Positions 2,371 to 63,884 of a stretch of DNA of 64,000 bases are shown piece after piece; the first letter of the stretch is position 1; each line of letters opens with the position of its first letter. This DNA comes from a virus. Location: IMG/VR virus record IMGVR_UViG_3300035696_000041. One strand, given 5' to 3'. A model generated the notes under the pieces. The model was not told where the DNA came from. It saw only the letters and a list, made by a program, of their open reading frames with translations, and did not search any database. A program made the position numbers and the translations under genes.

Positions 2371-2514
2371 CTATTCCATCTGGTCAATGACTTTCTTGAA
2401 GATGGAATGGTCGTACCCACCGTTGCACGCCTCGAATAGGATAATAAGAAGAGGAATCACTGTGATGCAACAGAACAGTAAGAGCATCCCGATTATTACG
2501 TTTTTGCTTTTCAT
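2371..2514 (-). CDS. small membrane protein (47 aa, one TM helix)
   Basis: ATG overlaps the TGA of the upstream nadE fragment (ATGA). Hydrophobic core IIGMLLLFCCITVIPLLIILF. Below the ORF-track size cutoff. Confidence 0.3.
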   Translation of the reverse strand: MKSKNVIIGMLLLFCCITVIPLLIILFEACNGGYDHSIFKKVIDQME

Positions 2515-2944
2515 ACTTTTAACGCCTGTAGTTCAGCCAACTCTTCCTCATAGCCGCCCGTGAGGATAGGAGTGCGGCACCACGTCCTCGGGTCGAGGTT
2601 GTGGTCGTCCATATGGAACGAGAGAGCATACCGCTCACGCTTCCACTGATTGCGGCTGAATAAGCGGAAGAACTTCGTGATGCTATCAATGAGCTTATTG
2701 CGGTCGTAGTCCACTTCTCGGCTGATGGCATTGAAGATTTCCACGGGCACATAGCGGTTCTTCACCACGTAGCTTTCAATCATGTGGAGCAGCCAATAGG
2801 GCATCAGGTCGTCCTCGTCGGTCTGCTTGCATTCGGCGGGCCTTAGCTCGGCTGTCGGCTGTTGCTCATTGACGTACTTCATGGCGGGGCAAGGGCCAAT
2901 GCCTTCTGGTCCTTCCTCTTGCACCCACTTGAGGTACTCACGGA
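2511..2944 (-). pseudogene. nadE: NAD+ synthetase (NadE) C-terminal fragment, separated from its 5' part by IS insertion
   Basis: TAELRP...KQTDEDDLMPY matches the conserved C-terminal region of NAD synthetases. The first 46 nt of ORF 2511..2990 derive from the IS right end. TGA stop. Confidence 0.6.
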
Positions 2945-4265
2945 TATGAACTACCCACCCGCTAAAGCAGGTGGGGTTCCCCCCAAGCAATAGTTATGAG
3001 TTTCTATTGGGTAGTTCCTACCCATTTTGTATTCCATCTTGGGAAATGCGAAATCTACGATATTCTTCGCAGCATTCACATCTCTATCGTGTTGTGTATT
3101 ACAAGTAGGACACTTCCATTCTCTATCATCAAGTGTTAGAGAATGATTTACATATCCACAATGGGAACACATTTTACTGGATGGGTCAAATCTTCCAATC
3201 TTACGGAAGTTTTTACCATACCAATCACTTTTGTATTGGAGCATATTTACAAACTTATTCCAAGCATAATCAGCGATGCGATTATTGGTTGGTGAATAGT
3301 TTATGGTTTGTATGCCCTTCACAGACAAATCCTCAATACAAATAGTATTCACTTGGTTTTCGTGAGTGAGTTTGTATGAGAGTTTATCCAAGAAATCTTT
3401 TCGTTGTCTTGCTATTTTGGAATGGAGTTTGGTAATCTGCTCTTGCTTGGAGATATAAGCAGTAGAACCTTTAGTGAGTTGCTCCAAGTCCTGTTGGTGT
3501 TTGGTGAGTTTGTCTTGCGACTTTTTCAACACCTTTGGGTTCTCAATCTTGGTTCCATCGTTTAGAGTAATGAATGTCTTTACTCCAAAGTCCATTCCTA
3601 TTGCTTTGTTCCTCTTTGGTTCGGGTTTGGCTGGGAAATCCTTATTCACTTCCACAAGGATAGAGACATAATACTTTCCATCTCTGTCTTGGGATACGAT
3701 TGCTTGCTTCAATGTTCCTTCTGCTGGTCTATCAAAGATACACTTTATTCCTTCACGGAACTTTGGTATGACTAATCGTTTCGTCTCATAGTTCAGTTTG
3801 ATATTACTATTGGTGATGGGAACTATGAAGGATTTACGGGCATCCTTCCTTGACTTGAACTTGGGAAATCCTGCTCCACTACGAAAGAATGCGGTGTATG
3901 CTCGGTCAAGGTTTAGGATGGACTGCTGTAATGATTGAGAACCTATCTCACTCAACCATTCGTATTCGTCCTTGAGAGTGGGGAGTTGAGTTGCTAAATC
4001 CTGCCAAGTGATAGTTTTCTTGGTGGATTTGTAATGGTCTATTTTGACTTGGAGGAAGTGGTTATAGACGAAACGACAATGACCAAAATGCTTGGACAAA
4101 AGAACTTGTTGTTCCTTGTTCGGCATCAAGCGATATTTGTATGCTCTGTTATACATCCTACTAATACATATAGTTGAGTTTGAGAAAACATCAAAGTATT
4201 TTCAATGGGTCGCATTCATCCCATCCGCTAAAGCAGATGGGTTTTCTGCTTCCACCAAAGATAAA
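2945..4265 (-). mobile_element. IS200/IS605-family TnpB-only insertion element, copy 1 (1321 bp)
   Basis: Ends defined by alignment with copy 2. Subterminal hairpins cccacccgctaaagcaggtggg (RE) and cccatccgctaaagcagatggg (LE). No tnpA. Lies inside nadE. Confidence 0.75.
2951..4156 (-). CDS. tnpB: TnpB RNA-guided endonuclease (OrfB, IS605/IS1341 type)
   Basis: 401 aa. RuvC-I IGMDFGVKTF, RuvC-II CIEDL, zinc finger CSHCGY...CPTCNTQHDRDVNAAKNI. About 78 percent identical to copy 2. Confidence 0.85.
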   Translation of the reverse strand: MYNRAYKYRLMPNKEQQVLLSKHFGHCRFVYNHFLQVKIDHYKSTKKTITWQDLATQLPTLKDEYEWLSEIGSQSLQQSILNLDRAYTAFFRSGAGFPKFKSRKDARKSFIVPITNSNIKLNYETKRLVIPKFREGIKCIFDRPAEGTLKQAIVSQDRDGKYYVSILVEVNKDFPAKPEPKRNKAIGMDFGVKTFITLNDGTKIENPKVLKKSQDKLTKHQQDLEQLTKGSTAYISKQEQITKLHSKIARQRKDFLDKLSYKLTHENQVNTICIEDLSVKGIQTINYSPTNNRIADYAWNKFVNMLQYKSDWYGKNFRKIGRFDPSSKMCSHCGYVNHSLTLDDREWKCPTCNTQHDRDVNAAKNIVDFAFPKMEYKMGRNYPIETHNYCLGGTPPALAGG

Positions 4266-5624
4266 CTTACCAATCTTGAGGTATTCCTTGAACACGGGGT
4301 CAACGTCAAGGACCAAGAAGGGCACCCCGAGGGCCGCAGAGACTTGATTGGCCGATTCCCGAGTCACCTTGCCACTGTTCTCTGTCGGCTGATAGGCAGT
4401 AGTGATGAGTATCCTCGTAAGAATACGAATCTGTTCCTCTTGGTCGTAACGGTCAAAGTCACTGCAACGAGCAGCACTCGCACAGTGCGGAGCGTACTTG
4501 GCGAGGAAAGGAACTGCCCCAAGTTCTCGTACTCCCAACTCGATGCCCTTGGCACACGCATAAGTCACCATTGACGAGTCGGCACCGCCAGATAGAGAGA
4601 TTACAAAGCCCTTGGTGTGGGACTTCCGCATGTAATCCATGAGAGCAAGGCCGAGGGCACGGGTGCATTCCTCATGTTTAATGTTAATGCCGCTTTCCCA
4701 CGGCTCTTCGAGAGTATTCATATTCTTCTCGGCCACACTCGGGAAAAGGAAGTCTCCCTTGACGCATCCTTCATTATATCCTTCAAGGTTCGGTTGAAAG
4801 GATGCCGTTCTGGCAACACTCGTTTTGGTCGTATGCACGTCCACGATGGCAGAAGTAATGAGAGAATCACGATAGGTAAACCGTTTGCCTTCTGCACAGA
4901 GAGACCCACCCGAGGCAATCAAAGCACCGCCATCATAGATGGCACGTCCAGATTCGTTGCCTACGAGATTTGCATACACATAGGTTGCACCGAAGGCTCG
5001 GGAGCCATCCACGACGAAGTTCCTTCGGGTCACTATCTTGCGGAAAGCGAAGTGAGAAGCTGAGGGATTGAGATAAATATCCACTCCCTTACCCGCCAGC
5101 TTGGTGCCAGGGCGTGCCGCAACCCATGCATCCTCACAGATTTCATATCCAATCTTCACCCCATCGAAAAGGAAATGAGTATCACCAATAGGATAGTCAG
5201 TTCCATTGATGGTAATGTGCTTGACTATACCCGAGGGCCACGGCTTGAAGTGGCGAGGCTCATAGTGGATGCCATCCCCCGCCAAGTGTTGCTTGCACGT
5301 AAAGCCCCACACTTGCTTGTTGGCAACAGTAGCCACGGCGTTATAGAGAGTGTTGTCAAACATCACGGGGAGTCCAATGCACACGATGATGTCCTTGGTG
5401 TGCTCGGCAATGGCGAAAAGCTTCTTCATCGCCCGTGCGGGAACGTCGGCACAGAACAAGTCGTCCTCAAGGCCGTAGCCCGTGATGGTCATTTCGGGAA
5501 GGCACAGCACCGATATGTTCTGATTCTTGGCTTCCCAAATGGTCTGAATGATATTCTTGTGGTTATTCTTCCAGTCCCGAGGGGTCTGATTCATTACCGC
5601 AGCACCAACTTTGATTAGTTTCAT
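4266..5624 (-). pseudogene. nadE: glutamine-dependent NAD+ synthetase (nitrilase domain + PP-loop synthetase domain), 3'-truncated by IS
   Basis: N-terminal CN-hydrolase domain, then SLSGGADSS PP-loop. ORF 4191..5624 ends with 25 aa (GGSRKPICFSGWDECDPLKIL) encoded by the IS left end. Confidence 0.75.
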
Positions 5625-6025
5625 TTGGCGGGTTCTTTCTTGGATGTATAGGTATAACCGAAGACGAGATAAGAAAACCCGTTGCTTCGATTGACACCAA
5701 GCAGCACATGCTGTAGGTTTACGTCGGTTGAGCCGTGGAAGTGGTTAAGCACAGCTTCATAGAAGCGGGCAGTCTTCGGAGTAAGTTTAGCTTTCTTGGC
5801 CAACTCAAACCCCTCTTGCCATTCCTTTCCAATGAGACGGTCATCGTAGTTGTAGAATAGCCCTTCCTTGGGGGCACCAAAAACCGTAATAGCATCGCCC
5901 CTGGCCTCGGGGTCCGAGTAATGCATGAAGGTGCGTATCGGCGTATCCTTATCCGTCAACGCAAAGCGGCATGGAAATTCGTCTTCCTGGTCCCAGTACC
6001 CCAAGTTGGAATGTATGCGTTTCAC
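5621..6025 (-). CDS. hypothetical protein (between nadE and pncB)
   Basis: 134-aa ORF translationally coupled to flanking NAD genes. No recognised motif. Confidence 0.45.
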   Translation of the reverse strand: MKRIHSNLGYWDQEDEFPCRFALTDKDTPIRTFMHYSDPEARGDAITVFGAPKEGLFYNYDDRLIGKEWQEGFELAKKAKLTPKTARFYEAVLNHFHGSTDVNLQHVLLGVNRSNGFSYLVFGYTYTSKKEPAK

Positions 6026-7206
6026 TTCGTTACACTTTCTACGGGAAGGCCGAGAGTAGCCTTTACAAGGTTCACGTCTTCGAGATTGCCCGTGTGTTTA
6101 CCAGGGTCATCCGAGAGTTTCACCACACCCACAGAGCCGTTGCCGAAGTCGGCAGTAGCCAGTTTGATAACCATATTCAAGGGTTTGATGCCCTCGATGT
6201 CATTGGCGAAGTGGGTTCCGATACCACCGCACGGCTGAATGAACTTGCGGAAGTACTGGTCGAGGGCAACGTAGGTATCAGTATCCAGCCCATTGCTGAA
6301 CACGAGCCGCTTCTCTTGAGAAGGAATGCGGAGCCTCTTGTAATGGTCCACCGCTCGGATGCCTTGCTCGTAGTTCTCGCCACTGTCCACCCGCACACCA
6401 TCGAAGAGGCGGGCGTCATAGGTATCAAAATCCCGATAGAACACCTTGCTCGTGAAGGTGTCGGTCAGAGCAATACCCACATTGCCATTGAAATGAGCCG
6501 CCCAATGCTTACGCCACATTCTGTCGGCCATGAGGGGGCCATAGAGGGCAGACATTGCCATGATGCACTCGTGGGCGTAGGTGCCGCTTGGAATCACGCC
6601 GTACTTCATCGCAAAGTGCGGGTTGCTTGTGCCGAGGAAACCTTCACCATCACGCATGATTTCCACAACATTTGCTTGCACTTCGTAAGAATGGCGGCGA
6701 CGGGTGCTGAAATCAATCCAGTGGCATTTGTTTTCAGAAAGCTTCGTAGTCTTCCGTTGGATGCGAAGCTTCCAATCGCCAGAGGCGGGCTGATTAGTCA
6801 TACGGAAGTACAGTTCCGAGATAATCGCCATCAGTTTGACTTCCCAATAGATGGTGCGATACCAGTAGCCCGTGATAATGATAGTGAGAGTGCCGTTGAC
6901 TTGCTTCACTTCCACTTCCCGAGGGTCCATGCGGTAGTGCCGCAGCCATTCGATGTAGGTCGGACGCTGGTACTTGATGCTGTTCCGCATCCAATCGGCC
7001 TCGGCGTCGGTCATTTCCAGTTTGGAAAGCATTTCCAGTTGCTTCTGGAGTTCAATATCAAATCCCTTGGGGAAGGGCACCTTGCTCCGAAGGATGAACT
7101 TGTACGACACCACGGCGTTCGGAAAGTCATGGAACACGACAGACCCCATGTTGAACTTGTACAGGTCGTCGTCTAGCATTGAGCGGATGATGGGTTCGTC
7201 AATCAT
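6022..7206 (-). CDS. pncB: nicotinate phosphoribosyltransferase (NAPRTase)
   Basis: SMLDDDLYKFNM N-terminus, LTDTFT and GVRVDSGE motifs typical of PncB. Start taken at the internal ATG 7206, because the upstream 40 codons are low-complexity. Confidence 0.7.
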   Translation of the reverse strand: MIDEPIIRSMLDDDLYKFNMGSVVFHDFPNAVVSYKFILRSKVPFPKGFDIELQKQLEMLSKLEMTDAEADWMRNSIKYQRPTYIEWLRHYRMDPREVEVKQVNGTLTIIITGYWYRTIYWEVKLMAIISELYFRMTNQPASGDWKLRIQRKTTKLSENKCHWIDFSTRRRHSYEVQANVVEIMRDGEGFLGTSNPHFAMKYGVIPSGTYAHECIMAMSALYGPLMADRMWRKHWAAHFNGNVGIALTDTFTSKVFYRDFDTYDARLFDGVRVDSGENYEQGIRAVDHYKRLRIPSQEKRLVFSNGLDTDTYVALDQYFRKFIQPCGGIGTHFANDIEGIKPLNMVIKLATADFGNGSVGVVKLSDDPGKHTGNLEDVNLVKATLGLPVESVTK

Positions 7207-7210
7207 ATGC

Positions 7211-7528
7211 TTATTCGAAGGTCGGGGTTTTGGTGATGGTTTCCGTAGTGCGGGTCGTGTACTGGATTTCGCCGCACTCTTGGCAAACACGTTTCCAACG
7301 AAAATCGGTCTTGGCGGCAACGTCACACGGGCCTCGCCAGTCCACTCCCATCGTGCCAGGAGGGTCGCCAGGGATGGTGTAGCCTTTGTGGTAAATGTGG
7401 TCGGGCGTCACCGCACCCCACCGATGGTTGCACGAGCGTACAGCGGAAACTAGCTTCCGCTCGGTTTCATCCAACTCCAACCGCATTGCGGCAACCCGAA
7501 GGCGAAGGTCTTGAATGTTATGGTTCAT
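7211..7528 (-). CDS. hypothetical protein with CxxC motif
   Basis: ORF 7211..7639 trimmed to ATG 7528. Contains CQECGE. Confidence 0.35.
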   Translation of the reverse strand: MNHNIQDLRLRVAAMRLELDETERKLVSAVRSCNHRWGAVTPDHIYHKGYTIPGDPPGTMGVDWRGPCDVAAKTDFRWKRVCQECGEIQYTTRTTETITKTPTFE

Positions 7529-16553: not shown

Positions 16554-17477
16554 TTATTTCAAGCGTAATATCTCTCCTTTGAAGTAGTCGTTCAACATTG
16601 AGAGCAGAGGACGGTGCATAGGCATGATGTCCCCTTCGCTTATCTCACCAAATTGTGCCCACTTGACGAACTTGATGTCGTCTCGGGCCTTCGGCTCCCC
16701 GCCGATGTACCGCATTACGTATAGGAACGTGAGAATCTTGTCTTGCTCACGGCGATACCGCCAGTCGTCCACGATGGAGCTACCGACATAGCCAACCAAC
16801 TCAAGGTCAAGGCTCGTCTCTTCCTTGCCTTCACGGCGGGCCGCATCCTCGGCACTCTTGTCTTTGGCGGGGTCAGTGAACCCACCAACAAGCTGCCAGA
16901 GGTCCGCATTGGGCTTCTGAGCCAGCAAGAGCCGCTTCTTGTCGTAGTCCACGATACCAAGGTCCACCGTCGCTTTGAACGAGGGATATTGATTCTGAAC
17001 GGCGAATACGACTCCTTCACGGAAGTCTTGCGTGTTCTTGCCTTTGATGCCTATGCGGCGGCGAACTTCACTTGCCGATATGTACTTGCTCGGCACGAGT
17101 TCTACGGTGGGGTAATGGCCCATGTAGCCATTGATGAAGCTGTCTCGACTACCGTACAGGACCACACGAAGATTGGGTCCAACGGTCTTGGCGATTTGTT
17201 TATCGAGGTTCTTGCTCCAGATTTCGTTGTGACCAACGTCGTCAATGTAGAGCACTTCGATGTCTTGATAAGCTTCCTCAATCATCGCCTTGCGGATAGC
17301 AAAGTCGAAAGGATTGTTGAATGTGCATTTCAGCGGAGAGAGTCCGAGGAATATAAGGACTCGGGGGTGAGCGGCACGTACTGTGTCCAGTATCTCTTTG
17401 TGCCCCTCATGGAGGAACGGCGATTGAAATCTCGCCACGATTACGCCAACTTCGGCGTCATTATCCGTCGTCTTCAT
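16554..17477 (-). CDS. bifunctional NMN/NaMN adenylyltransferase (NadM type) - Nudix ADP-ribose pyrophosphatase
   Basis: VIVARFQSPFLHEGH (NadM GRFQPFHxGH) then Nudix box GGFTDP...REGKEETS. Start trimmed to ATG 17477. Confidence 0.7.
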   Translation of the reverse strand: MKTTDNDAEVGVIVARFQSPFLHEGHKEILDTVRAAHPRVLIFLGLSPLKCTFNNPFDFAIRKAMIEEAYQDIEVLYIDDVGHNEIWSKNLDKQIAKTVGPNLRVVLYGSRDSFINGYMGHYPTVELVPSKYISASEVRRRIGIKGKNTQDFREGVVFAVQNQYPSFKATVDLGIVDYDKKRLLLAQKPNADLWQLVGGFTDPAKDKSAEDAARREGKEETSLDLELVGYVGSSIVDDWRYRREQDKILTFLYVMRYIGGEPKARDDIKFVKWAQFGEISEGDIMPMHRPLLSMLNDYFKGEILRLK

Positions 17478-17617
17478 AGCACCTAATCTGTATCTCGGTT
17501 TTGCTAACACAACGTAGCTTCATCAAAATCTCGGCCACGCTGACAACAATACATATTGTTGATTCTGCCAAAAGTGTAACAGAAACACTAAGTCATGTCA
17601 AGTTTTCTTTTCGGCAG

Positions 17618-27429: not shown

Positions 27430-27577
27430 TCTTCTGCTCCAATGCCTCTATACGCTTGGCCAGAGTCTCAACGGCACTCGTAAGCTTAGTGATAGCGTCC
27501 GAATTGCTGTTGCTGGCGTCTGCCAAGTTTTGGAGACATTCACCTAACACGTTGCGTGGTCCTGTTGCGGGATTCAT
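27365..27577 (-). CDS. hypothetical protein
   Basis: 70-aa ORF. Confidence 0.3.
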   Translation of the reverse strand: MNPATGPRNVLGECLQNLADASNSNSDAITKLTSAVETLAKRIEALEQKIEDHKSEGGSGTGHYGGGPWG

Positions 27578-28038
27578 GGTTGATAGAAACAGATATAGAA
27601 GTCAATCGGAGACTGGTCAAAGACATCCCCGATGATTTCTCGGACAATACGCCACGAGGCACCGCCACGGTCACAGCCCATTAGCTTGGGGCAACCGAGG
27701 GTGGACAGACTTTTGGCCTTGGCATCGAATTCAATCTTTCGCAAGCCACGGTCCAAGGCGTCATAGCTCGTGAAGCGAGCCATAGAACCATAGTTGTACT
27801 GCCCATAGAGGTTATAGATGTACTTATCATCCTTGACCGAATGGGCGACAGAGAACGTGCCAAGACGCTTTGAATCGCCTTTGGCACCCGACCTTACGTC
27901 AGCCTCATAGGCTTCGGGATACTTTTCACGGATGGAGCGGGCAACGCCCGACCCCATCGTGTGCATACAATTGGCTTGGTGGATAATACCCTGTAGTGGA
28001 TATTCCAACAGGTTAGCATCAATGTCGTGTACCATATG
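27574..28038 (-). CDS. macro domain protein (ADP-ribose binding/processing)
   Basis: IIHQANCMHTMGSGVARSIREKYPEAY fits the macro-domain N-terminal motif (vNaAN...GgGva.ai). Start trimmed to ATG 28038. Confidence 0.6.
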   Translation of the reverse strand, partial: HMVHDIDANLLEYPLQGIIHQANCMHTMGSGVARSIREKYPEAYEADVRSGAKGDSKRLGTFSVAHSVKDDKYIYNLYGQYNYGSMARFTSYDALDRGLRKIEFDAKAKSLSTLGCPKLMGCDRGGASWRIVREIIGDVFDQSPIDFYICFYQP

Positions 28039-28039
28039 C

Positions 28040-28417
28040 TTATGCGGTTGGGACCAACTTGACGGTGACGCCGATAGCCTCGAACTTCTCCATTGCGGTC
28101 TTGGCCACAGGATACTCGGCTCCCTTGATGACAACGGAGTCGGGCGTCTCAGCGAGTCGCTTGCCCTCGGCAAGGCCCACATTGGTCAACTCACGAATGA
28201 GTTTGATTGCGGGAATCTTGGCTTGGTTGACCGACACCAGTACGACATCATACGGGCAGTCGGACTGCTCGATTTGTTTCACGAACTTGTCAGCGGGTTC
28301 CAAAAGAGGATGCACGGTTTCAGTGATGCCCCACTTGTCACGGAGTTCTTTGGTGAGAGCAATCAGTTCGGTCATCTTGAGGTTGCTCAGAGCCTCAACC
28401 ATTTCTGTAACGTTCAT
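28040..28417 (-). CDS. rplL: ribosomal protein bL12 (L7/L12) homologue
   Basis: N-terminal dimerisation helix EMVEALSNLKMTELIALTKELRDKWG. C-terminal domain DVVLVSVNQAKIPAIKLIRELTNVGLAEGKRLAETPDSVVIKGAEYPVAKTAMEKFEAIGVTVKLV parallels [38 protein letters not shown]...EAGAEVEVK. Confidence 0.65.
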   Translation of the reverse strand: MNVTEMVEALSNLKMTELIALTKELRDKWGITETVHPLLEPADKFVKQIEQSDCPYDVVLVSVNQAKIPAIKLIRELTNVGLAEGKRLAETPDSVVIKGAEYPVAKTAMEKFEAIGVTVKLVPTA

Positions 28418-35196: not shown

Positions 35197-35484
35197 TTAA
35201 GAATCTTTTTCTTCGCTCTCGTCTTTTTCTTCGCCATTGTAATAGTTGTGTGTGCTCATGTTAATGACGCCCGTCCACGGCCAGTCGCCATTCCACCACG
35301 CCACGATTGAAAAACATACGATGGCGATGGCGGCAACGAGTGGCCAACCTTGGAGGCCCATTTTTGCGAGTGAATCGAGTTCAAACATATTGCTACCTTC
35401 TCTGAATGCCCTTGCGGTCTCCAACCATGCAGTTGAAGGGGTTGATTTGCCCGTGGTTCGGAATGCCTTTGCCCGTGAACCCAC
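35197..35484 (-). CDS. hypothetical membrane protein
   Basis: 95 aa with a central TM helix. Overlaps the ligase 3' end, so uncertain. Confidence 0.25.
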   Translation of the reverse strand: MGSRAKAFRTTGKSTPSTAWLETARAFREGSNMFELDSLAKMGLQGWPLVAAIAIVCFSIVAWWNGDWPWTGVINMSTHNYYNGEEKDESEEKDS

Positions 35485-36634
35485 AATAGGTCATGGTGAC
35501 AGTCTGCCCGACCCACTTGTCTTGCTCACCCAAAATCTGCTTCACCGTCTCGAAGTCACCTTTCATGGTTGCCTCGAACTTCTGTCCCTTGCTGTCTTGC
35601 ACCGAGACCGTCTTGGCAGTGCCGCCCCAGTTACCAGAGCCAGGGTCCACGAAACCGAGGATAAGCACTTCCATGTCGTCGAACGGCTTAAGCTTAATCA
35701 AGTCGTCGGTTCGCTCGTGCTGATAAGGAGCATCGGCATTGCGAAGGATGGCACCCTCGTACCCGTCCTCGATGAAGTCCTCGAACAGCCGCTTGGCTTC
35801 CTCGATGGTGTAGGCCATCAGATATGGCACGGGGACGATGTACTTAATGCCAGTGAGAAACTTGTGGAGGGCATCCCGCCGCTCTCGGCATGGGGTGTTC
35901 TCAGTGATTTCCACACCGTCAACGGTGAAGCCGTAGGCGTCGTACACGTAGTACTTGACAATCCTCTCGCTCTTGGCCAACAGTTCGGGGGTCAATTCCT
36001 TTAGGGAAGTCTTGCGAACGATTTTGATTAGCTCGTTCAGCTTGTGCCGATAGTCGTGGTTGTACAGTTCCCCGTCCAACACGAGTTTAGGAAACGTTTG
36101 GAACATAGACTCAAGGGTCTGCCAAATGTGGGGGGCCGAAAGGATTGGCTCGCCTTCACGGGTGTACGGCCCCATCGTGGAAACCACTTGCCGCATACCG
36201 TTGTACTTGCGGTCCACCATGACGGGCAAGCGAACCTTCGGGGTGCGGTCTTCAATGTGAGTGTAGGCTTTCCCGTCCTTGTCCTTCTTGGTCTTCTCGC
36301 TAATCAGAGGATAGGCGAGCATGGGCTTGATGAAGCGGTAGCCTTTGTCAATCTCCTTGATGTCTTCCCAGTAGCCGCCCGTTTTCAGCTTGTCCTTCCA
36401 CTTGGACATAGCCTCGGCCTCGGCTTGCTGTTCAGGAGTCGTTTGGTGCTTCTTGCCGACGTTCTTGGACTCGCAGACGGTCCATTTGGACGTGACCTTG
36501 TTGCCCCCTTGCTGCCCCGTAATCATCCGATACTTGTTGCCCTCGACTTCGACGTTCCATTCGAGGACAGTCTTGCCATCACTGGCTCGGGCGTACAGGG
36601 TCGGCAGGTCAAACTTGAATAGGGAGTTGCTCAT
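35393..36634 (-). CDS. ATP-dependent DNA ligase
   Basis: Motif I VDRKYNGMR (KxDG), motif III LVLDGELY, motif IV EGAILRN, motif V DLIKLK. Confidence 0.7.
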   Translation of the reverse strand: MSNSLFKFDLPTLYARASDGKTVLEWNVEVEGNKYRMITGQQGGNKVTSKWTVCESKNVGKKHQTTPEQQAEAEAMSKWKDKLKTGGYWEDIKEIDKGYRFIKPMLAYPLISEKTKKDKDGKAYTHIEDRTPKVRLPVMVDRKYNGMRQVVSTMGPYTREGEPILSAPHIWQTLESMFQTFPKLVLDGELYNHDYRHKLNELIKIVRKTSLKELTPELLAKSERIVKYYVYDAYGFTVDGVEITENTPCRERRDALHKFLTGIKYIVPVPYLMAYTIEEAKRLFEDFIEDGYEGAILRNADAPYQHERTDDLIKLKPFDDMEVLILGFVDPGSGNWGGTAKTVSVQDSKGQKFEATMKGDFETVKQILGEQDKWVGQTVTMTYCGFTGKGIPNHGQINPFNCMVGDRKGIQRR

Positions 36635-37564: not shown

Positions 37565-37758
37565 AGGCGTTGGTTCTTCTTGACTTGGAAATGACGTTTG
37601 GCTCCCTCGGGGAGTTGGTCGAACAAAGCCAGCATATTCGTCTTGGTCTTTAGTTCGGTCGGATACGTCTGAAAGGTGAATAGCTTCAACACTTCCATTA
37701 CTTCGTCGGGAGTGGCTCCAGGCTTTGGGTCGAAGATTAGTATTCTATCGGTGTTCAT
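37561..37758 (-). CDS. hypothetical protein
   Basis: 65-aa ORF. Confidence 0.3.
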   Translation of the reverse strand: MNTDRILIFDPKPGATPDEVMEVLKLFTFQTYPTELKTKTNMLALFDQLPEGAKRHFQVKKNQRL

Positions 37759-38024: not shown

Positions 38025-38030
38025 AGCATT

Positions 38031-38061
38031 ATACTACCACAGCCACTACCGTAAGTCAAGC
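38031..38061 (-). promoter_or_regulatory. sigma70-type promoter (member m), leaderless
   Basis: TTGACT-17-TGTGGTAGTAT. TSS about 38024, which is the ATG. Confidence 0.4.
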
Positions 38062-47026: not shown

Positions 47027-47031
47027 TTTGC

Positions 47032-47064
47032 TCAATATAGCACGGAGGTTAGCGTTCGTCAAGA
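47032..47064 (-). promoter_or_regulatory. sigma70-type promoter (member j), leaderless
   Basis: TTGACG-17-CGTGCTATATT. Confidence 0.45.
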
Positions 47065-47117
47065 TGTTTCTATAAAAAGAACGCCACCCCGAAGGGTGGC
47101 GTCCTGTGAGCACACCA

Positions 47118-47690
47118 TCAGAAGGCGATACCGATACCGAAGTCGAATCGCAGTGGGTTGCCCTTGGCCGTGGTCCAACCATCGGCGGCGGTGTGGGTCA
47201 ACAAGTCGTAGTTGATGCCAGCGTAGATGAAGGCATTGCCTTTGGTGTAGTATTCCAGTTCAATCTCGGGGCCAGTACGCCATCCGAGGGAGGAACGGTC
47301 ATACACCGCACCAGCAGACCAACCCGTGTCGAGGTACAGCTTGTCCTTGATAAGCGACCACGCCCAAGCGGCGTCGAGGTCCGTAGCACCTTCCAAGGCC
47401 GGGGACCATCCCAACTCCTGGGAGATACCGAACCAGATGGGCTGCTTCAACGGCTGGAACGAGTAGGTCAAATCGAATGCAAACTCGGTATGTCCCGATT
47501 TCGGATTCGTGAGGCCACTGCCGCCGAACGTCAACTCCATAGGAGTGCCCGTTTCAGCGGGGGCATTGGTCAAACTGAGCGACGGCGAATTGGTGCCGAA
47601 GAGAGTGCTTGAGGCAGTGTTCGTATCTGCGGCGTAGGCGGCGAAGCCCACGAGAACCACTGCGAATAAGGATAGAAGTGTTTTCTTCAT
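47118..47690 (-). CDS. outer-membrane beta-barrel protein (OmpX/Ail/Lom-like)
   Basis: Signal peptide MKKTLLSLFAVVLVGFAAYA, alternating amphipathic strands, aromatic girdle residues and a C-terminal ...FGIGIAF ending in Phe. Confidence 0.5.
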   Translation of the reverse strand: MKKTLLSLFAVVLVGFAAYAADTNTASSTLFGTNSPSLSLTNAPAETGTPMELTFGGSGLTNPKSGHTEFAFDLTYSFQPLKQPIWFGISQELGWSPALEGATDLDAAWAWSLIKDKLYLDTGWSAGAVYDRSSLGWRTGPEIELEYYTKGNAFIYAGINYDLLTHTAADGWTTAKGNPLRFDFGIGIAF

Positions 47691-54278: not shown

Positions 54279-55598
54279 TTTATCTCTGTGGGAGCAGAAA
54301 ACCCACGCACCTTTAGGTCGTGGGATGAATGCGACCCATTGAAAATAGTTAATCGTTTTCTCAAAGTGAATGATATGTATCTTGTAGAATGTATAACGTT
54401 GCTTACAAATACAGAATATATCCGACCAAGGAACAAGAAGTCCTTTTGTCTAAACATTTCGGACATTGCCGATGGATATACAATCATTTTCTTGAAGTAA
54501 AGATTAAGCATTACAAAGAAACCAAGAAAACATTGAACTGGCAGGATATGGCAACTGAACTACCAAAATTGAAAGAAGAATATGAATGGTTGAGTGAGAT
54601 TGGAAGTCAATCTCTCCAACAATCTATTCTCAACTTGGATAGAGCATACACTTCCTTTTTCCGTTCCAATGCTGGATTTCCCAAATTTAAGTCAAAGAAG
54701 TATGCTCGTAAGTCGTTCATTGTTCCAATGACAAATAACAACATTAAACTGAACTATGAGACAAAACGATTAGTCATACCGAAGTTTCGTAAAGGAATAA
54801 AGTGTGTATTTGACCGACCGGCAGATGGAATCTTGAAGCAAGCAATTGTATCACAAGATAGAGACGGAAGATATTATGCTTCCGTTCTCGTAGAAGTTGA
54901 AAAAGAACTTCCAAAGAAACCAAACCCAAAGAAAGATAAAGCAATCGGCATAGATTTTGGAGTTAAGACATTTTTGACATTGAATGATGGAACAAAGATA
55001 AAAAGTCCTAAATACCTTAAACAATCTGAACAGAAACTTACCAAACACCAACAGGATTTAGAAACTCTCACCAAAGGTTCCACTGCTCATATCTCCAAAC
55101 AAGAACAGATTACCAAACTTCATAGTAAAATAGCAAGACAACGAAAAGATTTCTTGGATAAACTCTCATACAGATTAACGAACGATAACCAAGTTCAATC
55201 CATCTGTATTGAGGATTTAACCATTCGGGGAATGCAGAAAGACAACTATTCACCAACTAATAAACTCATAGGAGATTATGCTTGGGGGAAGTTTGTAAAT
55301 ATGCTCCAATATAAAAGCGACTGGTATGGTAAAAACTTCCTAAAAATAGGTAGGTTTGAACCATCCAGTAAGACGTGTTCTCATTGTGGATATGTAAATC
55401 ATTCTCTCACATTAAATGATAGAGAATGGACTTGTCCAGATTGTAATGAAAAACACGATAGAGATGTGAATGCTGCCAAGAATATCTTGGATTTCTCATT
55501 TCCAAAGACAACGTTTAATACGGGTAGGAACTACCCGATAGAAACTCATAACTATTGCGGTGGAAACCCACCTGCTTTAGCGGGTGGGTAGTTCATAG
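54279..55598 (+). mobile_element. IS200/IS605-family TnpB-only insertion element, copy 2 (1320 bp)
   Basis: Left end tttatctctgtgggagcagaaaaccca and right end cccacctgctttagcgggtgggtagttcata both align with copy 1. Opposite orientation. Confidence 0.75.
54389..55591 (+). CDS. tnpB: TnpB RNA-guided endonuclease (OrfB)
   Basis: 400 aa, full RuvC-I/II/III and zinc finger (CSHCGY...CPDCNEKHDRDVNAAKNI). Collinear with copy 1. Confidence 0.85.
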   Translation: MYNVAYKYRIYPTKEQEVLLSKHFGHCRWIYNHFLEVKIKHYKETKKTLNWQDMATELPKLKEEYEWLSEIGSQSLQQSILNLDRAYTSFFRSNAGFPKFKSKKYARKSFIVPMTNNNIKLNYETKRLVIPKFRKGIKCVFDRPADGILKQAIVSQDRDGRYYASVLVEVEKELPKKPNPKKDKAIGIDFGVKTFLTLNDGTKIKSPKYLKQSEQKLTKHQQDLETLTKGSTAHISKQEQITKLHSKIARQRKDFLDKLSYRLTNDNQVQSICIEDLTIRGMQKDNYSPTNKLIGDYAWGKFVNMLQYKSDWYGKNFLKIGRFEPSSKTCSHCGYVNHSLTLNDREWTCPDCNEKHDRDVNAAKNILDFSFPKTTFNTGRNYPIETHNYCGGNPPALAGG

Positions 55599-55744
55599 AA
55601 GTAGGGCTTGAATCTTTCGCAAGCCTCATCCCGAGTGATGCCGAGGCGATTGTGGTCGAAGGGGTTTCCGAAAATAGAAGAACGGTCACAGACAACATCG
55701 GGCTTGTGGCACCGCATGTTGACTATGACCGTTTGCGATTCCAC
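55577..55744 (-). pseudogene. DUF4326-like protein, 3'-truncated by the IS right end
   Basis: IVNMRCHKPDVVCDRSSIFGNPF...ACERFKPYF matches the DUF4326 core (dvyIgR...GNPF). The last six codons (YELPTR-stop) are IS-derived. Start position uncertain. Confidence 0.3.
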
Positions 55745-55752
55745 AGGGCTGT

Positions 55753-55947
55753 TTAGCGGGAGCCAACCGGAAGAACCATCATCTTGGACTTCAACACGTA
55801 GTTTCTCAGCGTGGCGAGGTCTTGCCGCAAAGGGCGACGGTTCATGGTGTAACGGGTGAACGTGAAGCCACCGTAGGGGCTGGTCGTCCAACGTCCGTTT
55901 GAGCGGTAGAAGATGCCGTACCTCACGGCTTGTTTCTTGTTTGGCAT
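55753..55947 (-). CDS. hypothetical protein
   Basis: 64-aa ORF. Alternative frame to the long ORF 55577..56020. Confidence 0.25.
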   Translation of the reverse strand: MPNKKQAVRYGIFYRSNGRWTTSPYGGFTFTRYTMNRRPLRQDLATLRNYVLKSKMMVLPVGSR

Positions 55948-56085
55948 AACTTGTTTGTTCTTTTCGTTTTACATACACAACTCCACAGGGGAGTATCTTA
56001 CGCAGCTTATAATTTACCACAGATGCCCTTGGGTGTCAATAACAAAAAAGCCCCGCCGAAGCGGGGCTGTGCAAAACGGGTCTTG

Positions 56086-57621
56086 TTAGACCTGAACACG
56101 CTCATAGCGAGGCGTGTTAACCGTCTCATACACGATGCTGAGAGGGTCGAAGGTGATTGCGGACATCAAGGACTTCAAGATGCTAGGAGAGCATCCCGAG
56201 ACCATGCACGTTCCCGTGTCGTCGGAACGAATCGGGAAGTTTTCGTTACGGGCCGCAACGTTCCACCAAACCACACGAGGCAGTTGGTAGCCAGCGGCTT
56301 CGTACTTGTCCTTCATGACTTGGAAGTTCGTCTTGTCGTTGCGGTACGACGCTGAGTCGAACTCCATGTCCGAGATTACATACAGAACTTGCGGCATGTC
56401 GCTCTGAGCGACCTTGTTCTGGCGAGCCGTGTTCAGAATCATGTCGAACGCACTCTGGAGGTTGGTGGTGCCACCCCAGTTGTTCTTGTCCATGTTCTGG
56501 TACTTCTCGTACAGGTTCTGGCCCTTCAAACGCTGGAACGTTGGGGACTCGGAGAAGTTCATCCACAAGTCCTTGAAAGGGCCGACGTTACGCTCTGCGA
56601 AGTAAATCGCAAGCGACACGGCGACAAAGATGTTCGGAACACCCGAGAACATTGAGCCAGAGCAGTCAGCGATGACGATACCCTTGTGCTCGTTCTTGCC
56701 CATCCAGTTAGGCATGGACTTCCACTGCAAGTCGGCTTGCAGAATTTCTTGCGGCGAAGGGGTTGCCCCACCGTACGGAGTCTTCACGAGTGAACGGAAG
56801 ATTTCGTATGGATATACCACCGTGGCGTTCATCTTGGCTTCGCCCTTCTTGACAGACTCCAGGTAAGCCGCATAGCGGGTTTGGTCGTGCTTGCCGAACG
56901 CCTTGCGGTAGTTCAGCGATGCCTTGGAAGGCACACGCTCAAAGTCAATGTGCGACCAGTCGCCCGAGCACATCTTGACTTCAAGCACATCAATGTGCTT
57001 ACGCAGTGCGGACAGAATCTTGCGGTAACGCTTTGGCGTCAATTCCAGAGCCTCACGAGTCTTGCGAGCAAGACGCACGGACTCCTTGGACGAAGTGTTC
57101 TCGGACTTGAGCCACTTGGCCAAGAGCGAGACGGACTCACCCGCCTTCATGTTCTTGATGTCGGCCTTCAACTGCTTGGCGAAGAGGGCGAACACTTCGG
57201 CCTCAAGTGGGGTTCCCACGAGGGCGTACAGGTCGTCCCAACGGCCATAGAAGGCTACGTTTTCGAGGTTCTTGCGGGCAACATCTGTGTAGTGCTGGCC
57301 GAGCCAGTTGAAAATGTTGCGGAAAGTCTGACGCTCTCCCTGACCTTCACGCACGTCACGGAAGTAGAAGAGAATCTTGGTTGCCAACAGACGGTCCTCG
57401 GCAAAGGCACGAGAGAACAGGTTGACAGTATCTTGCGGAGCACGCTGACGGAGGGCACCGCCCTGGCCGAACCAGTCGAGGACTGAGGACAGGGTGCTCT
57501 TGTTGGTGATTGCCCCCTTCTCGGTGTACGCAACGTTGGACACGTTGGTCATGGCCGTAACGAAAGCGTTAGGCTGAGGGACAAACTGGGTACGGTTGGT
57601 CTTGCGAGTCACGTTCTTCAT
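56086..57621 (-). CDS. vWA-domain protein, Ro60/TROVE-like (DUF2828-like)
   Basis: 511 aa. C-terminal IVIADCSGSM MIDAS motif. N-terminal helical region of Ro60-like length and architecture. Confidence 0.45.
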   Translation of the reverse strand: MKNVTRKTNRTQFVPQPNAFVTAMTNVSNVAYTEKGAITNKSTLSSVLDWFGQGGALRQRAPQDTVNLFSRAFAEDRLLATKILFYFRDVREGQGERQTFRNIFNWLGQHYTDVARKNLENVAFYGRWDDLYALVGTPLEAEVFALFAKQLKADIKNMKAGESVSLLAKWLKSENTSSKESVRLARKTREALELTPKRYRKILSALRKHIDVLEVKMCSGDWSHIDFERVPSKASLNYRKAFGKHDQTRYAAYLESVKKGEAKMNATVVYPYEIFRSLVKTPYGGATPSPQEILQADLQWKSMPNWMGKNEHKGIVIADCSGSMFSGVPNIFVAVSLAIYFAERNVGPFKDLWMNFSESPTFQRLKGQNLYEKYQNMDKNNWGGTTNLQSAFDMILNTARQNKVAQSDMPQVLYVISDMEFDSASYRNDKTNFQVMKDKYEAAGYQLPRVVWWNVAARNENFPIRSDDTGTCMVSGCSPSILKSLMSAITFDPLSIVYETVNTPRYERVQV

Positions 57622-61392: not shown

Positions 61393-61466
61393 ACACCCAT
61401 AAATATGAGTCTTTATTGCCAAAGAAATGACAATCGGGTGAAAGAGAAAAAAACTTCGAAAAGATG

Positions 61467-61495
61467 TTGACAGCGTATTTTGACTGTGGTAATAT
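61467..61495 (+). promoter_or_regulatory. sigma70 consensus promoter TTGACA-17-GTGGTAATAT (plus strand)
   Basis: Marks the strand switch. Same extended -10 family as the minus-strand promoters. Confidence 0.5.
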
Positions 61496-61526
61496 GTGGC
61501 AAATTCGAACAACCAAAAGGAACAAC

Positions 61527-61973
61527 ATGAATCTCGCACAAGCACTCAAACAGAAAAACCGCCTCGCTGGAGAACTCGTCCGTCAGCAACAGATTTTGCA
61601 GCGTGAAAACGCCCGCCGCAACGACTCCGTGTCCGAAGTGGACCGTGAGGAAGTGTGGGAGAAGATTCTCTCCCTCTCCGATGAACTCGGGAAACTCAAG
61701 GGGAAAATCACCCAGGCCAACGTCAACATTTATCCCGCCCTCGAACGCATGGCCGAACTCAAGGCCCGCATTGCCTTCGTGCAAGGGTTGCAGAAGCGTG
61801 AAGGCGAGGAAATCATCCCGCTCCACGGCGACCGTGAGCCGCTGAAATACGAATGGGATTCCTATTTCAATCAGGAAAAGACCGACGCTCTTGTCGCCGA
61901 GTTGCAAGAGCAAATCAACGACCTTCAAGACGAAGTGGACGAGTACAACGCCACTACGCAAATCGAAGACTAA
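61527..61973 (+). CDS. hypothetical coiled-coil protein
   Basis: ORF 61464..61973 trimmed to ATG 61527, downstream of the promoter with AAAGGAA SD-like sequence. Confidence 0.45.
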   Translation: MNLAQALKQKNRLAGELVRQQQILQRENARRNDSVSEVDREEVWEKILSLSDELGKLKGKITQANVNIYPALERMAELKARIAFVQGLQKREGEEIIPLHGDREPLKYEWDSYFNQEKTDALVAELQEQINDLQDEVDEYNATTQIED

Positions 61974-62182: not shown

Positions 62183-62420
62183 TTTATGGAGCAGTTGCCG
62201 AGACGATGGTAGGTAACTGTGCGGTGCGACTGGTCCCCTCTGGGGATACTTGAATTACGAGAAAGAGAAAGATAAACGAGGTTAAATTTTCGACAATTTC
62301 CTCGGTTCAAACCTAAAGTCTCAAGTTCTCAAAAATCAAGAATCAAGCCGCAAGACTCAAAACTCTTCTGCACCAAATGGAAGCCGAGAGTAGTTGAGGC
62401 AACTGTCTCCACCTTCTTCA

Positions 62421-62588
62421 ATGAAAACCCGCCGCAGCCATAGCGAACGACCTTGCCGCCGCAAGCGTGCCCACAACTACGAGAATTGCTACTACTGCTG
62501 GCGTGCCCACCAAATGGACAAGCGATACGCTTGGATTCGCCCCGAGGAACGCCTTCTCGCCGATTACATCCTTCGCAAGATTGACTAA
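62421..62588 (+). CDS. hypothetical basic Cys-containing protein
   Basis: Part of ORF 62394..62588 from MKTRRS. Confidence 0.3.
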   Translation: MKTRRSHSERPCRRKRAHNYENCYYCWRAHQMDKRYAWIRPEERLLADYILRKID

Positions 62589-62591: not shown

Positions 62592-63884
62592 ATGGCTACC
62601 CTCGTAAAAGAAGTCCGCTTGATTATGGCCGAGAATGGGATTGACCCCAAAACTGGCCTGCCCCGCAACAACTACAAGTACTGGAACGCCAAGCTATTCG
62701 ACGATGGCAATTGGAGTGCCGAATGGGGGCGGGTTGGTTGCGAAACCCCCGACAGCGGAACTTGGAACGAGTCCAACAAGACGTTAGACTCGGTGGTTCG
62801 CTCCAAACTCAAGAAGGGCTACACCCACCAAAAGACCATCGGCGAGGCCGTTGCTTCTCCTGGTTCTGGCACCGTGGTCAAGAACACCGACCTTCACGCT
62901 ATCGCCAAGGCCCAAATTCTCAAGACTTCAAGCCCGACGTTGGACCGCCTCATTAAGCGGTTCGTGGACGCCAACGTCCACAAGATTACGACGAGCACCC
63001 AAATCACGTACAACAGCACCACGGGCTTGTTCACTACGCCTCTCGGCATTGTGACGATGGAAGGTCTGACCGATGCCCGTGACTTACTCGCCAAGTTGGC
63101 CCCCCGTGTCCGCTCCCGCAAGTTTGGTCCCGAGACCGACACCATTTTGTGTCAGTATCTCCGCATCATCCCCCAAGCCCTCGGCATGAAGCGGTACACC
63201 ACCGAGACCGTCATTCCCGACGACAACGCCTTGCAGAAGCAGAACGACTTGATTGACTCCCTCGAATCGAGCTACCAAGCCATGACTTCGGCCCCCAAGG
63301 CTCCGACCACCGCTGGTCAGACGCCCGCCGAGACTGTTTTCAAGGTGGACTTGGATGTTCTTAATGACCCCGCCGAGCGTCGTCGTTTGGAACAGTACTT
63401 CGAGAACAGCAAGAAACGCCAACACGGCTATGACAACGTGCGGGTGCGTGAAATCTTCAAAGTCACCATCCACGACATGGCCCGAGTTTTCGAATCCAAG
63501 ACCACTCCCATCAAGGAAGTGTTCCACGGCACGTCTCAAGCCAACTGCTTAAGCATCCTCAAGTCTGGCTTGAAGGTCAGCCCTCCGAGCACCGCAGCCA
63601 TTGCGGGCAAAATGTTCGGCAACGGCATCTACGGGGCCATCAACAGCACCAAGTCCCTTGGCTATACCTATGGCCGTTGGGGGCAAGGTGGAGTGGGCGA
63701 CTCGGGTTGGCTGTTCATATGCGACTTCGCAATGGGCCGCATCTACTCGACTCAATCCTCATGCGACAAGCCCTCGGGGTACGACTCCGTGTGGGCCAAG
63801 GCGGGATACAGCCTCAACAACGATGAGTTGATTGTGTATCGTAACTCGCAAGTCACCATTCGTTACTTACTGGAGTGCAAATAA
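62592..63884 (+). CDS. poly(ADP-ribose) polymerase-like ADP-ribosyltransferase with N-terminal WGR domain
   Basis: WGR motif WNAKLFDDGNWSAEWGRVG. Catalytic H-Y-E: VFHGTSQANCLSILKSGLKV, GNGIYGAINSTKSLGY, NNDELIVYRNSQVTIRYLLEC (compare human PARP1 NEYIVYDIAQVNLKYLL). Confidence 0.7.
   Translation: MATLVKEVRLIMAENGIDPKTGLPRNNYKYWNAKLFDDGNWSAEWGRVGCETPDSGTWNESNKTLDSVVRSKLKKGYTHQKTIGEAVASPGSGTVVKNTDLHAIAKAQILKTSSPTLDRLIKRFVDANVHKITTSTQITYNSTTGLFTTPLGIVTMEGLTDARDLLAKLAPRVRSRKFGPETDTILCQYLRIIPQALGMKRYTTETVIPDDNALQKQNDLIDSLESSYQAMTSAPKAPTTAGQTPAETVFKVDLDVLNDPAERRRLEQYFENSKKRQHGYDNVRVREIFKVTIHDMARVFESKTTPIKEVFHGTSQANCLSILKSGLKVSPPSTAAIAGKMFGNGIYGAINSTKSLGYTYGRWGQGGVGDSGWLFICDFAMGRIYSTQSSCDKPSGYDSVWAKAGYSLNNDELIVYRNSQVTIRYLLECK

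Follow-up and report, generated by a model that had tools for sequence, protein, structure and literature searches.

A WGR-type poly(ADP-ribose) polymerase gene in phage-derived DNA and its possible connection with nucleic-acid end repair

What use could a phage have for a poly(ADP-ribose) polymerase (PARP)? PARP1-3 are central to DNA-break signalling in eukaryotes and are drug targets. Among their prokaryotic and viral relatives, two bacterial enzymes have been assayed and no phage one. The question is raised by an open reading frame (ORF) at positions 62592..63884 of the IMG/VR virus record IMGVR_UViG_3300035696_000041. The window, as it is called here, is the whole stretch of 64,000 nucleotides that we analysed. 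A first-pass annotation had taken this ORF for a bona fide WGR-PARP in a phage and had joined it with a macrodomain protein, a Nudix fusion and NAD+ resynthesis genes into one set of writers, erasers and recyclers of ADP-ribosylation. Our results indicate that the gene product is almost certainly an active PARP-family ADP-ribosyltransferase. Regarding its function, we favour with moderate confidence a mechanism in which a nick- or break-activated ADP-ribosyltransferase works together with end repair.

The PARP gene, its product and its family

Judged by sequence and by a predicted structure, ORF 62592..63884 encodes a three-domain enzyme of the PARP1/2/3 type, in which a WGR domain is followed by a helical regulatory domain and an ADP-ribosyltransferase (ART) domain with an intact H-Y-E triad. 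The gene is laid out as follows:

62592..63884, plus strand: coding sequence of the PARP-type ADP-ribosyltransferase, ATG start, TAA stop, 430 aa (ORF, Pfam, PHROG, PDB and Foldseek)
62592..62834, plus strand: WGR domain, aa 1-81 (beta-sheet and helix in the model, pLDDT 86-97; aligned to the PARP2 WGR)
62724-62732, plus strand: WGR motif W45-G46-R47 in 'AEWGRVG' (literal in the sequence)
62892..63290, plus strand: predicted helical (regulatory, PARP_reg-like) domain, aa ~101-233 (helices in the model; match to the PARP1 helical domain by phmmer and Foldseek)
63342..63881, plus strand: ART (catalytic) domain, aa ~251-430 (Pfam PF00644 at residues 262-403)
63525-63527, plus strand: triad residue H312 in 'HGTS'
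63630-63632, plus strand: triad residue Y347 in 'GIYGA'
63825-63827, plus strand: triad residue E412 in 'ELIVYRNSQVTIRYLLE' / 'NDELIVYRNSQVTIRYLLE'

The Pfam PARP catalytic domain is found in the 430-aa protein with E=1.8e-23 (83.5 bits against a cut-off of 26.7), and PHROG 23333 ('polymerase') matches it over the full length (E=4e-47). The best phmmer matches in PDB are PARP2 and PARP1 (E~1e-13). More specifically, the main alignment with PARP2 runs from residue 21 to 384, that is, from the WGR into the catalytic domain, and a second short stretch (400-428) holds the catalytic Glu motif. In the phmmer alignment with PARP1, H312, Y347 and E412 fall on 'WHGS', 'GIYFA' and 'NEYIVY', K354, S355 and Y358 fall on the 'SKSANY' motif, and residues 144-250 pair with the helical domain. 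It is important to note that on the query alone Pfam WGR stays sub-threshold (E=0.0029, 18.1 bits against 22) and PF02877 (PARP_reg) is not detected at E<=1; many close homologues have WGR above threshold, and many have PF02877. The N-terminus 'MATL(V/I)KEV' is kept in homologues, which fixes the start codon. A Pfam match to RNA 2'-phosphotransferase (Tpt1/KptA; E=0.024) reflects the shared ART fold only, and this identity was rejected.

The structural model agrees with the alignments. A first AlphaFold model from 34 close homologues (pLDDT 63.7) was replaced by an AlphaFold2 model from 65 diverse homologues, with pLDDT 88.3 and pTM 0.79. It has a beta-rich WGR domain (1-81), a low-confidence linker, the helical domain (~101-233) and the ART domain (251-430), the last two joined by an Ala/Pro/Thr-rich linker (234-250) that is disordered and of low pLDDT. 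Comparison with the PARP1 catalytic domain had been proposed as a check by the first-pass annotation, and in a Foldseek search of PDB the top match of the model is the WGR-HD-ART fragment of PARP1 on a DNA break (4dqy_C, E=1.2e-23, TM 0.65). DNA-bound PARP2 comes next, the catalytic domains of PARP1/2/3/4 are matched as well, and the model aligns across the WGR of both PARP1 and PARP2. Among predicted viral structures, the best matches are full-length phage proteins and a PARP of Bodo saltans virus.

Conservation was read from an alignment of 65 diverse homologues of 30-49% identity. H312 and Y347 are present in 65/65 and E412 in 64/65, the remaining sequence having Asp. All motifs quoted in the first-pass annotation are found in the ORF, and the triad that it had recognised is near-invariant. 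In the ART domain K354 and Y358 (65/65 each) and G313 (63/65) are kept too. The WGR domain keeps Y77 (65/65), K29 and K72 (64/65 each) and G46 and R47 (62/65 each), and W45 is Trp in 47/65 and Tyr or Phe in 12 more. Compared pairwise with its relatives, the window gene has a dN/dS of 0.06-0.11, dS being close to saturation. Purifying selection on the gene is strong, and its active site is intact. A pseudogene or an inactive PARP-like protein is ruled out by the conservation of the triad and by dN/dS.

The family is large. A search of 5.8 billion proteins gave 768 homologues at E<=1e-5; the best 120 of these are at least 63% identical to the window PARP, mostly 409-444 aa long and encoded on contigs of up to 364 kb, and many carry Pfam WGR, PARP_reg and PARP together. 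An exhaustive search of representatives gave 2,711 clusters at E<=1e-3, of which 323 reach E<=1e-30, and among the 150 clusters listed nearly all are ~400-450 aa long and align over their full length. No PARP relative of at least 63% identity was found in the collection of phage isolates. The window PARP is a member of a separate, so far uncultured clade with at least 120 metagenomic relatives at that level.

That the window is derived from a phage is sound. It encodes an rIIA homologue:

21584-23974, minus strand: rIIA homologue, 796 aa, GHKL ATPase (2,586 phage records match)

Thymidylate synthase, an ATP-dependent DNA ligase, DNA methylases and two TnpB elements are also encoded, and the genes are dense and mostly on one strand. 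Close relatives of the PARP are found in IMG/VR viral contigs. One of them, on a 364-kb contig, keeps the order DUF4326, DUF2828/DUF7788, N6/N4 methylase, ~148-aa coiled-coil protein, PARP. Contigs with a PARP relative and rIIA/rIIB nearby are 197-364 kb long, those of more distant relatives up to ~240 kb. Taken with the Pfam, PHROG and PDB matches, the rIIA gene and the IMG/VR relatives bear out the earlier view of a genuine WGR-PARP in a phage. Bacterial or eukaryotic contamination is ruled out by rIIA, the IMG/VR relatives and the jumbo-phage contexts.

Gene neighbourhoods and the proposed break response

What may the enzyme respond to? The surroundings of the PARP gene were compared in 14 phage lineages with PARPs that share 25-86% identity with that of the window. 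An ATP-dependent DNA ligase lies at most one gene from the PARP in 4/14 lineages:

L027: ligase, GIY-YIG homing endonuclease, PARP
P0301 contig: ligase ending 25 nt before the PARP
Cellulophaga phage phi17:2 (L016): CCA-adding enzyme, PARP, hypothetical gene, ligase
Huge phage LR756511 (L014): full-length WGR-PARP of 529 aa (36444-38033), then ligase (34912-36060)

A PNKP-type kinase/phosphatase is located 1.3-5 kb from the PARP in four loci (L001, L009, L012, L025), and RlaP, T4-type or other RNA ligases, RtcB or Thg1 are encoded within 10 kb in L024, L025, L028, L030, the P0301 contig and Klebsiella phage FBKp34. Altogether, a gene for healing or sealing of nucleic-acid ends lies within 10 kb of the PARP in 11/14 lineages. 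Genes processing ADP-ribose or NAD+ (Macro, NADAR, ADP-ribosylglycohydrolase, Nudix, NAMPT, DUF4326) are found within the same distance in 8/14.

Two features of these genes shape the mechanism that we favour. WGR and helical domains are kept and tightly conserved, which argues for ligand-triggered, regulated activity rather than constitutive modification of the host; and the ligase, PNKP and RNA-ligase neighbours speak for a nucleic-acid break as the trigger and for an output linked with end repair. Break activation would follow from these two observations, the conserved WGR residues and the ligase/PNKP neighbourhoods. By homology with known PARPs, the WGR domain would bind a discontinuity in nucleic acid, for example a 5'-phosphorylated nick or end. 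Binding would loosen the autoinhibitory helical domain and open the NAD+ site of the ART domain, which would transfer ADP-ribose, as single units or chains, to the enzyme itself or to nearby proteins and release nicotinamide. The phage would probably use this during replication or nuclease attack, marking breaks and coordinating its end-healing and end-sealing enzymes: the ATP-dependent DNA ligase, PNKP and RNA ligases. The NAD+ salvage and macro genes of the phage may buffer the consequences of PARP activity. Activation by breaks, the acceptor, polymer formation and cooperation with the ligase are all inferred.

Several observations weigh against this mechanism. Full independence of the 14 lineages is not given, and accessory genes of nucleotide metabolism are clustered in jumbo phages, so proximity may be partly non-specific; an accidental origin of ligase adjacency in four divergent lineages is unlikely. 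In the window itself, the PARP has a DNA methylase, a coiled-coil protein and small ORFs as direct neighbours, and the ligase is 26 kb away:

35393..36634, minus strand: ATP-dependent DNA ligase (Pfam DNA_ligase_A_M, E=2e-17)

It is 37% identical to the ligase upstream of the PARP in L027 and 34% identical to the PARP-adjacent ligase of LR756511. WGR domains also occur in non-PARP proteins, so a WGR ligand is not proven to be DNA. No PARG-type Pfam match was found in the window ORFs scanned, mainly those of at least 200 aa, with some ORFs of ~100-200 aa left out. The searchable literature contains neither biochemical nor genetic results on a phage PARP.

The nature of the product calls for caution as well. 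In the phmmer alignment, the segment that directly precedes the catalytic Glu has ~30-35 residues fewer than that of PARP1/2. Moreover, the residue aligned to what we take as the acceptor-site Tyr of PARP1, Tyr986, is Asn (54/65 in the family). Chain elongation is not to be assumed. PARP3 and PARP4 are mono-transferases with H-Y-E, and this triad is needed for poly(ADP-ribose) synthesis but alone insufficient. By comparison with PDB sequences, the ART core is close in length to that of tankyrases, and tankyrases do make ADP-ribose chains.

The enzyme could instead serve host take-over, modifying proteins of the host (RNA polymerase or translation factors, for example) in the manner of T4 Alt, ModA and ModB, independently of breaks and with chains or single units. 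Such a function was proposed for phage PARPs in a survey of jumbo phages (PMC7824862), and ADP-ribosylation of host targets was also considered by the first-pass annotation. The PARP does sit among accessory genes, and in FBKp34 a gene annotated 'anti-sigma factor' is placed between macro and PARP. We nevertheless consider this unlikely. The WGR and helical domains, kept and strongly conserved, are hard to explain in a constitutive host modifier; the T4-type transferases belong to the R-S-E class and lack both domains; and the ligase/PNKP/RNA-ligase neighbourhood is not predicted by it. The gene neighbourhoods point rather to repair of DNA or RNA ends than to ADP-ribosylation of host targets.

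The break-response mechanism can be carried further, as a speculation that we rate as rather improbable. Phage WGR-PARPs could act as the sensors in a conserved break-response module of jumbo phages, recognising ligatable nicks or cleaved RNA/DNA ends left by replication or host nucleases. They would ADP-ribosylate repair proteins or the ends themselves and act with the adjacent ligase, PNKP and RNA ligases, with macro, ARH and NADAR proteins as erasers and NAD+ supplied by the phage. If this is true, the module would be a viral counterpart, and possibly the evolutionary source, of the eukaryotic PARP-ligase axis of single-strand-break repair. In any case, the compact WGR-HD-ART enzyme is abundant in uncultured large phages, subject to strong purifying selection and repeatedly found near ligase, PNKP, RNA-repair and NAD+/ADP-ribose genes. 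Break sensing coupled to end repair is a testable idea in cultivable phages (Klebsiella FBKp34, Xanthomonas XacN1, Cellulophaga phi17:2).

Macrodomain, NAD+ salvage genes and other surroundings of the PARP

Does the PARP belong to a dedicated ADP-ribosylation system? The macro gene reported at 27574..28038 and the Nudix fusion both exist, and the genes of NAD+ resynthesis were located as well:

27574..28182, likely start 28038, minus strand: macrodomain protein of DarG/TARG1/Poa1p type (Pfam Macro, E=7e-7)
16554..17510, minus strand: NMN/NaMN adenylyltransferase and Nudix fusion, NadM-Nudix type (Pfam NUDIX E=2e-14 and CTP_transf_like; PDB 2qjo E=1e-8)
15690-16499, minus strand: PncA-like nicotinamidase (Asp/Lys/Cys motifs of yeast Pnc1, 2h0r)
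14861-15634, minus strand: vWA protein (Pfam)
13828-14298, minus strand: small nucleotidyltransferase (NTase), second HIGH-type nucleotidyltransferase of the window (Pfam)
13038-13841, minus strand: PP2C (Pfam)
9831-11558, minus strand: kinase-like protein, 575 aa (Pfam)
6022..7326, minus strand: nicotinate phosphoribosyltransferase PncB (NCBIfam TIGR01514, 346 bits against 269.55; NF003704, 404.6 against 379; Pfam NAPRTase)
2511..5624, minus strand: glutamine-dependent NAD synthase nadE, split (CN_hydrolase and the start of NAD_synthase in ORF 4191-5624, the end of NAD_synthase in ORF 2511-2990)

Against the NCBIfam models of bifunctional NMNAT/Nudix proteins the NadM-Nudix fusion is sub-threshold. 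From these sequences, the predicted salvage route of the window is the deamidating Preiss-Handler route (PncA, PncB, adenylyltransferase, NadE) and not NAMPT. The claim that the phage carries NAD+ resynthesis genes is supported for the PncA-like protein, PncB, the adenylyltransferases and nadE, with the reservation that nadE is split by a TnpB element. More specifically, a 1.3-kb TnpB-only element of the IS605 family (~2945-4265) interrupts it. The borders were set by alignment to a second copy (~54279-55597; 54279-55597 in the alignment) that is 78% identical and lies between a His-phosphatase region and DUF4326. The ORF of the N-part (4191-5624) runs 25 codons into the element and then stops. 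Both flanks of the element carry the near-repeat 'GA(A/G)TACCTCAAG' encoding EYLK. Rfam found no RNA family over the whole window, hence no sign of a group-I intron or IStron where nadE is split.

The macro protein is closest to DarG, a DNA ADP-ribosyl glycohydrolase antitoxin (PDB 5m31, E=6e-9; PADLOC DarG, E=1e-13), and the NCBIfam DarG model matches with E=9e-12 and 44.8 bits, far under its cut-off of 250. In the HMMER alignment, which is ~25% identical, 'PTKKHW' of DarG pairs with 'YGQYNY' of the window protein, which has no Lys there. We take a Lys of 'PTKKHW' to be the catalytic Lys of DarG; the window protein seems to lack it and is therefore no more than a candidate eraser of PARP products. 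Members of this macro family in phages are often annotated 'phosphatase' or 'Macro_Poa1p_like'.

The same genes bear on a second alternative, in which the acceptor is nucleic acid. Phosphorylated DNA or RNA termini (nicks, genome ends, tRNA halves) would be capped until repair, and macro, ARH or NADAR proteins would uncap them before ligation. Some PARPs and TRPT1 are reported to ADP-ribosylate phosphorylated RNA/DNA ends in vitro (PMC6582358, PMC8385414). The neighbourhoods are rich in RlaP, CCA-adding enzyme, Thg1, RNA ligases, RtcB and PNKP as well as in the ADP-ribose-removing Macro, NADAR and ADP_ribosyl_GH, and DarG, nearest to the window macro, is a DNA de-ADP-ribosylase. We find this doubtful: end modification is a minority activity of eukaryotic PARPs, and the window macro seems to lack the Lys at the presumed catalytic position.

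A third explanation is the circuit of writer, eraser and recycler proposed by the first-pass annotation, in which PARP, macro, NadM-Nudix and salvage mainly serve PARP signalling. What stands of this claim is that all the genes share one 64-kb window and that combinations of them recur in other PARP phages. Macro, PARP, PncB and NadM-Nudix lie within 49 kb in the huge phage LR756500. The P0301 contig has Nudix, NAMPT and Macro together with PARP inside 10 kb, and L027 has Nudix, NAMPT and NADAR together with PARP inside the same distance. In Klebsiella phages a macro homologue lies 2.4-5 kb upstream of the PARP on the same strand, and in FBKp34 both are found between an annotated promoter and terminator. 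Of the 13 phage records with PncB, two also belong to the 16 with PARP. The closest association is in L031 (ENA ERZ26273027 contig_12, 10001-20736), a bacterial-looking locus whose PARP is 38% identical to that of the window. A block of kinase-like, PP2C, vWA and PncA-like genes abuts the PARP there in the order of the window (proteins 28-52% identical), and within 10 kb a STAND NTPase and PncB are encoded, PncB at 8 kb. Nicotinamide is both a product and an inhibitor of PARP, and a nicotinamidase therefore makes biochemical sense beside one.

What does not stand is the idea of one unit. In the window, 34 kb separate the PARP from the macro gene and 45-58 kb separate it from the salvage genes; it is on the opposite strand, and nadE is disrupted. 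There are 2,913 phage records with the macro family and 16 with PARP, the macro of the window is of DarG type, and the salvage cassette occurs in ~60 IMG/VR loci without PARP within 10 kb. Tight clustering of PARP with salvage and triad genes was seen only in L031 among the loci examined. These points weaken a dedicated circuit, which we regard as distinctly improbable. Macro and salvage genes occur widely without PARP and are therefore largely independent of it; counter-defence roles fit equally well, phage NAD+ salvage being already established against NAD+-depleting defences. We read PARP, macro and salvage as separate NAD+/ADP-ribose modules that often travel together and draw on one metabolite pool, with no single dedicated system.

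Hardly credible is a module for exclusion or suicide, in which ends of superinfecting DNA would activate the PARP to drain NAD+ or modify the invader: jumbo phages do carry superinfection-exclusion functions, and PARP hyperactivation depletes NAD+ in eukaryotes, but PADLOC gives only a weak WGR match, the heavy phage investment in rebuilding NAD+ speaks against depletion as a goal, and there is no toxin-antitoxin-like partner.

The salvage genes are of interest in their own right. On the minus strand at 9831-17510 they form a co-directional jumbo-phage cassette in the order [NadM-Nudix] - PncA-like - vWA - (small NTase) - PP2C - 575-aa kinase-like protein, and the same order and strand are found in ~50 IMG/VR loci. 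Among 57 IMG/VR loci with the PncA-like gene (L032-L088), vWA is present in 51, the kinase-like gene in 50 and PP2C in 44; within 10 kb there are PncB in 21, NadM-Nudix in 11 and NadE in 8, and in three of the loci PncB and NadE are placed between vWA and PP2C. The phage NAD+ reconstitution pathways described are NARP1 (Adps+Namat), NARP2 (Nampt+Nmnat) and NARP3 (PnuC+NadR), and no pathway based on PncA/PncB was found in the literature searched. By its sequence, the cassette resembles a phage module for NAD+ salvage of Preiss-Handler type to which a TerY-P-like triad is coupled, outside NARP1-3. Phages may have in it a further means against immunity that depletes NAD+. Inside it, between PP2C and the kinase-like gene, is a 333-aa protein with DUF4379/DUF723 zinc-finger repeats (11563-12564, minus strand). 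A homologue stands near methylases in L001, and the gene behaves like a mobile, homing-endonuclease-like insertion.

Closer to the PARP, a coiled-coil protein of ~148 aa (61464-61973, plus strand; true start probably the Met of 'MNLAQALK') is encoded just upstream and is conserved no further than the close clade. Directly before the PARP lies a small ORF (62394-62588, plus strand), basic and Cys-rich, with a recognisable relative in L008. No family match was found for either. DUF4326 and a DUF2828/DUF7788 protein (55577-57621, minus strand) are kept upstream of the PARP in the clade of the window (L001, L008-L010); DUF4326 was previously predicted to connect NAD+/ADP-ribose systems with DNA modification. 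PADLOC on the PARP and its neighbours gave no defence system, with weak matches to WGR_XIII (E=1.2e-4) and, for the coiled-coil protein, LmuB (E=4e-4). A promoter and terminator scan near the PARP gave nothing beyond chance.

Elsewhere in the window, the gene in the rIIB position after rIIA (19506-23974 block, minus strand) has a PP-binding (phosphopantetheine) domain near its C-terminus, and homologues of it adjoin rIIA in LR756500, L024 and L028. A DnaJ (J) domain is fused to a Ser/Thr kinase at 45986-47182, minus strand (Pfam DnaJ E=2e-13, Pkinase E=4e-35). Thymidylate synthase (435 aa, 38066-39373, minus strand) matches a Pfam profile of 266 positions with residues 78-435, which implies an insertion of ~90 residues and an N-terminal extension of 77 residues. 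PHROGs on ten unannotated large ORFs of the window gave one match, of unknown function. Regarding the host, megablast of the 50-64 kb part against phage isolates gave no match, hence no close cultured relative, and no close PARP family was found in GTDB species genomes, hence no host or prophage clue. A tRNA scan of the window found none, and a TnpB scan of genomes reached at best 46% identity, in a metagenome-assembled genome, which is uninformative for the host.

Relation to known PARPs and phage ADP-ribosyltransferases

The order WGR - helical - ART is that of human PARP2, PARP3 and the C-terminal half of PARP1 (clade 1). The WGR motif, H-Y-E and the equivalents of G863, K903, S904 and Y907 of PARP1 are conserved in the window PARP. 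It differs from human PARP1/2/3 in its ~19-22% identity, in lacking zinc fingers, BRCT and the N-terminal tail, in the shorter segment before the catalytic Glu, in the disordered linker between the helical and ART domains, and in its prokaryotic-viral setting. It ends directly after the last strand ('YLLECK') and thus lacks the C-terminal tail that serves HPF1 in PARP1/2.

Comparable in build are the bacterial enzymes HaPARP of Herpetosiphon aurantiacus and CdPARP of Clostridioides difficile, which by description share with the window PARP a compact WGR-(reg)-cat build of ~400-450 aa and H-Y-E. Both make PAR in vitro, HaPARP in a DNA-dependent way (PMC8120803, PMC4245714, PMC5966428). The characterised bacterial PARPs have a cognate PAR glycohydrolase; a PARG was found neither in the window ORFs scanned nor beside the bacterial homologues examined. 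On bacterial-looking contigs, homologues are 35-38% identical to the window PARP, and three of them stand alone, with no PARG beside them.

The T4 enzymes Alt, ModA and ModB are likewise phage NAD+-dependent ADP-ribosyltransferases used in infection. They differ in belonging to the R-S-E, cholera-toxin-like ART clade, in having no WGR or helical domain and in having known host targets.

Phage PARP genes themselves were listed in 2014 for Aeromonas phage Aeh1 and Cellulophaga phi4:1 (PMC4245714). The 2021 jumbo-phage survey noted XacN1 BBA65562.1 and suggested a role like that of the T4 ARTs but with formation of chains (PMC7824862). By tblastn we find a homologue in 16 phage records, which cover phages of Klebsiella, Xanthomonas, Stenotrophomonas and Cellulophaga together with two huge phages that are uncultured. 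The annotation 'poly(ADP-ribose) polymerase' is already given in several, and the FBKp34 entry notes WGR, regulatory and catalytic domains. The annotated phage PARPs are full-length homologues, 24-34% identical over 94-96% of the window PARP:

Klebsiella phages: FBKp34 gp111, 05F01, KP13-16
Xanthomonas phages: XacN1 ORF414, Xoo-sp13
Stenotrophomonas phages: CM1, RAS14
Cellulophaga phages: phi4:1, phi17:2

Phage PARPs are thus already known by annotation (PHROG 23333), and the window adds one more intact one.

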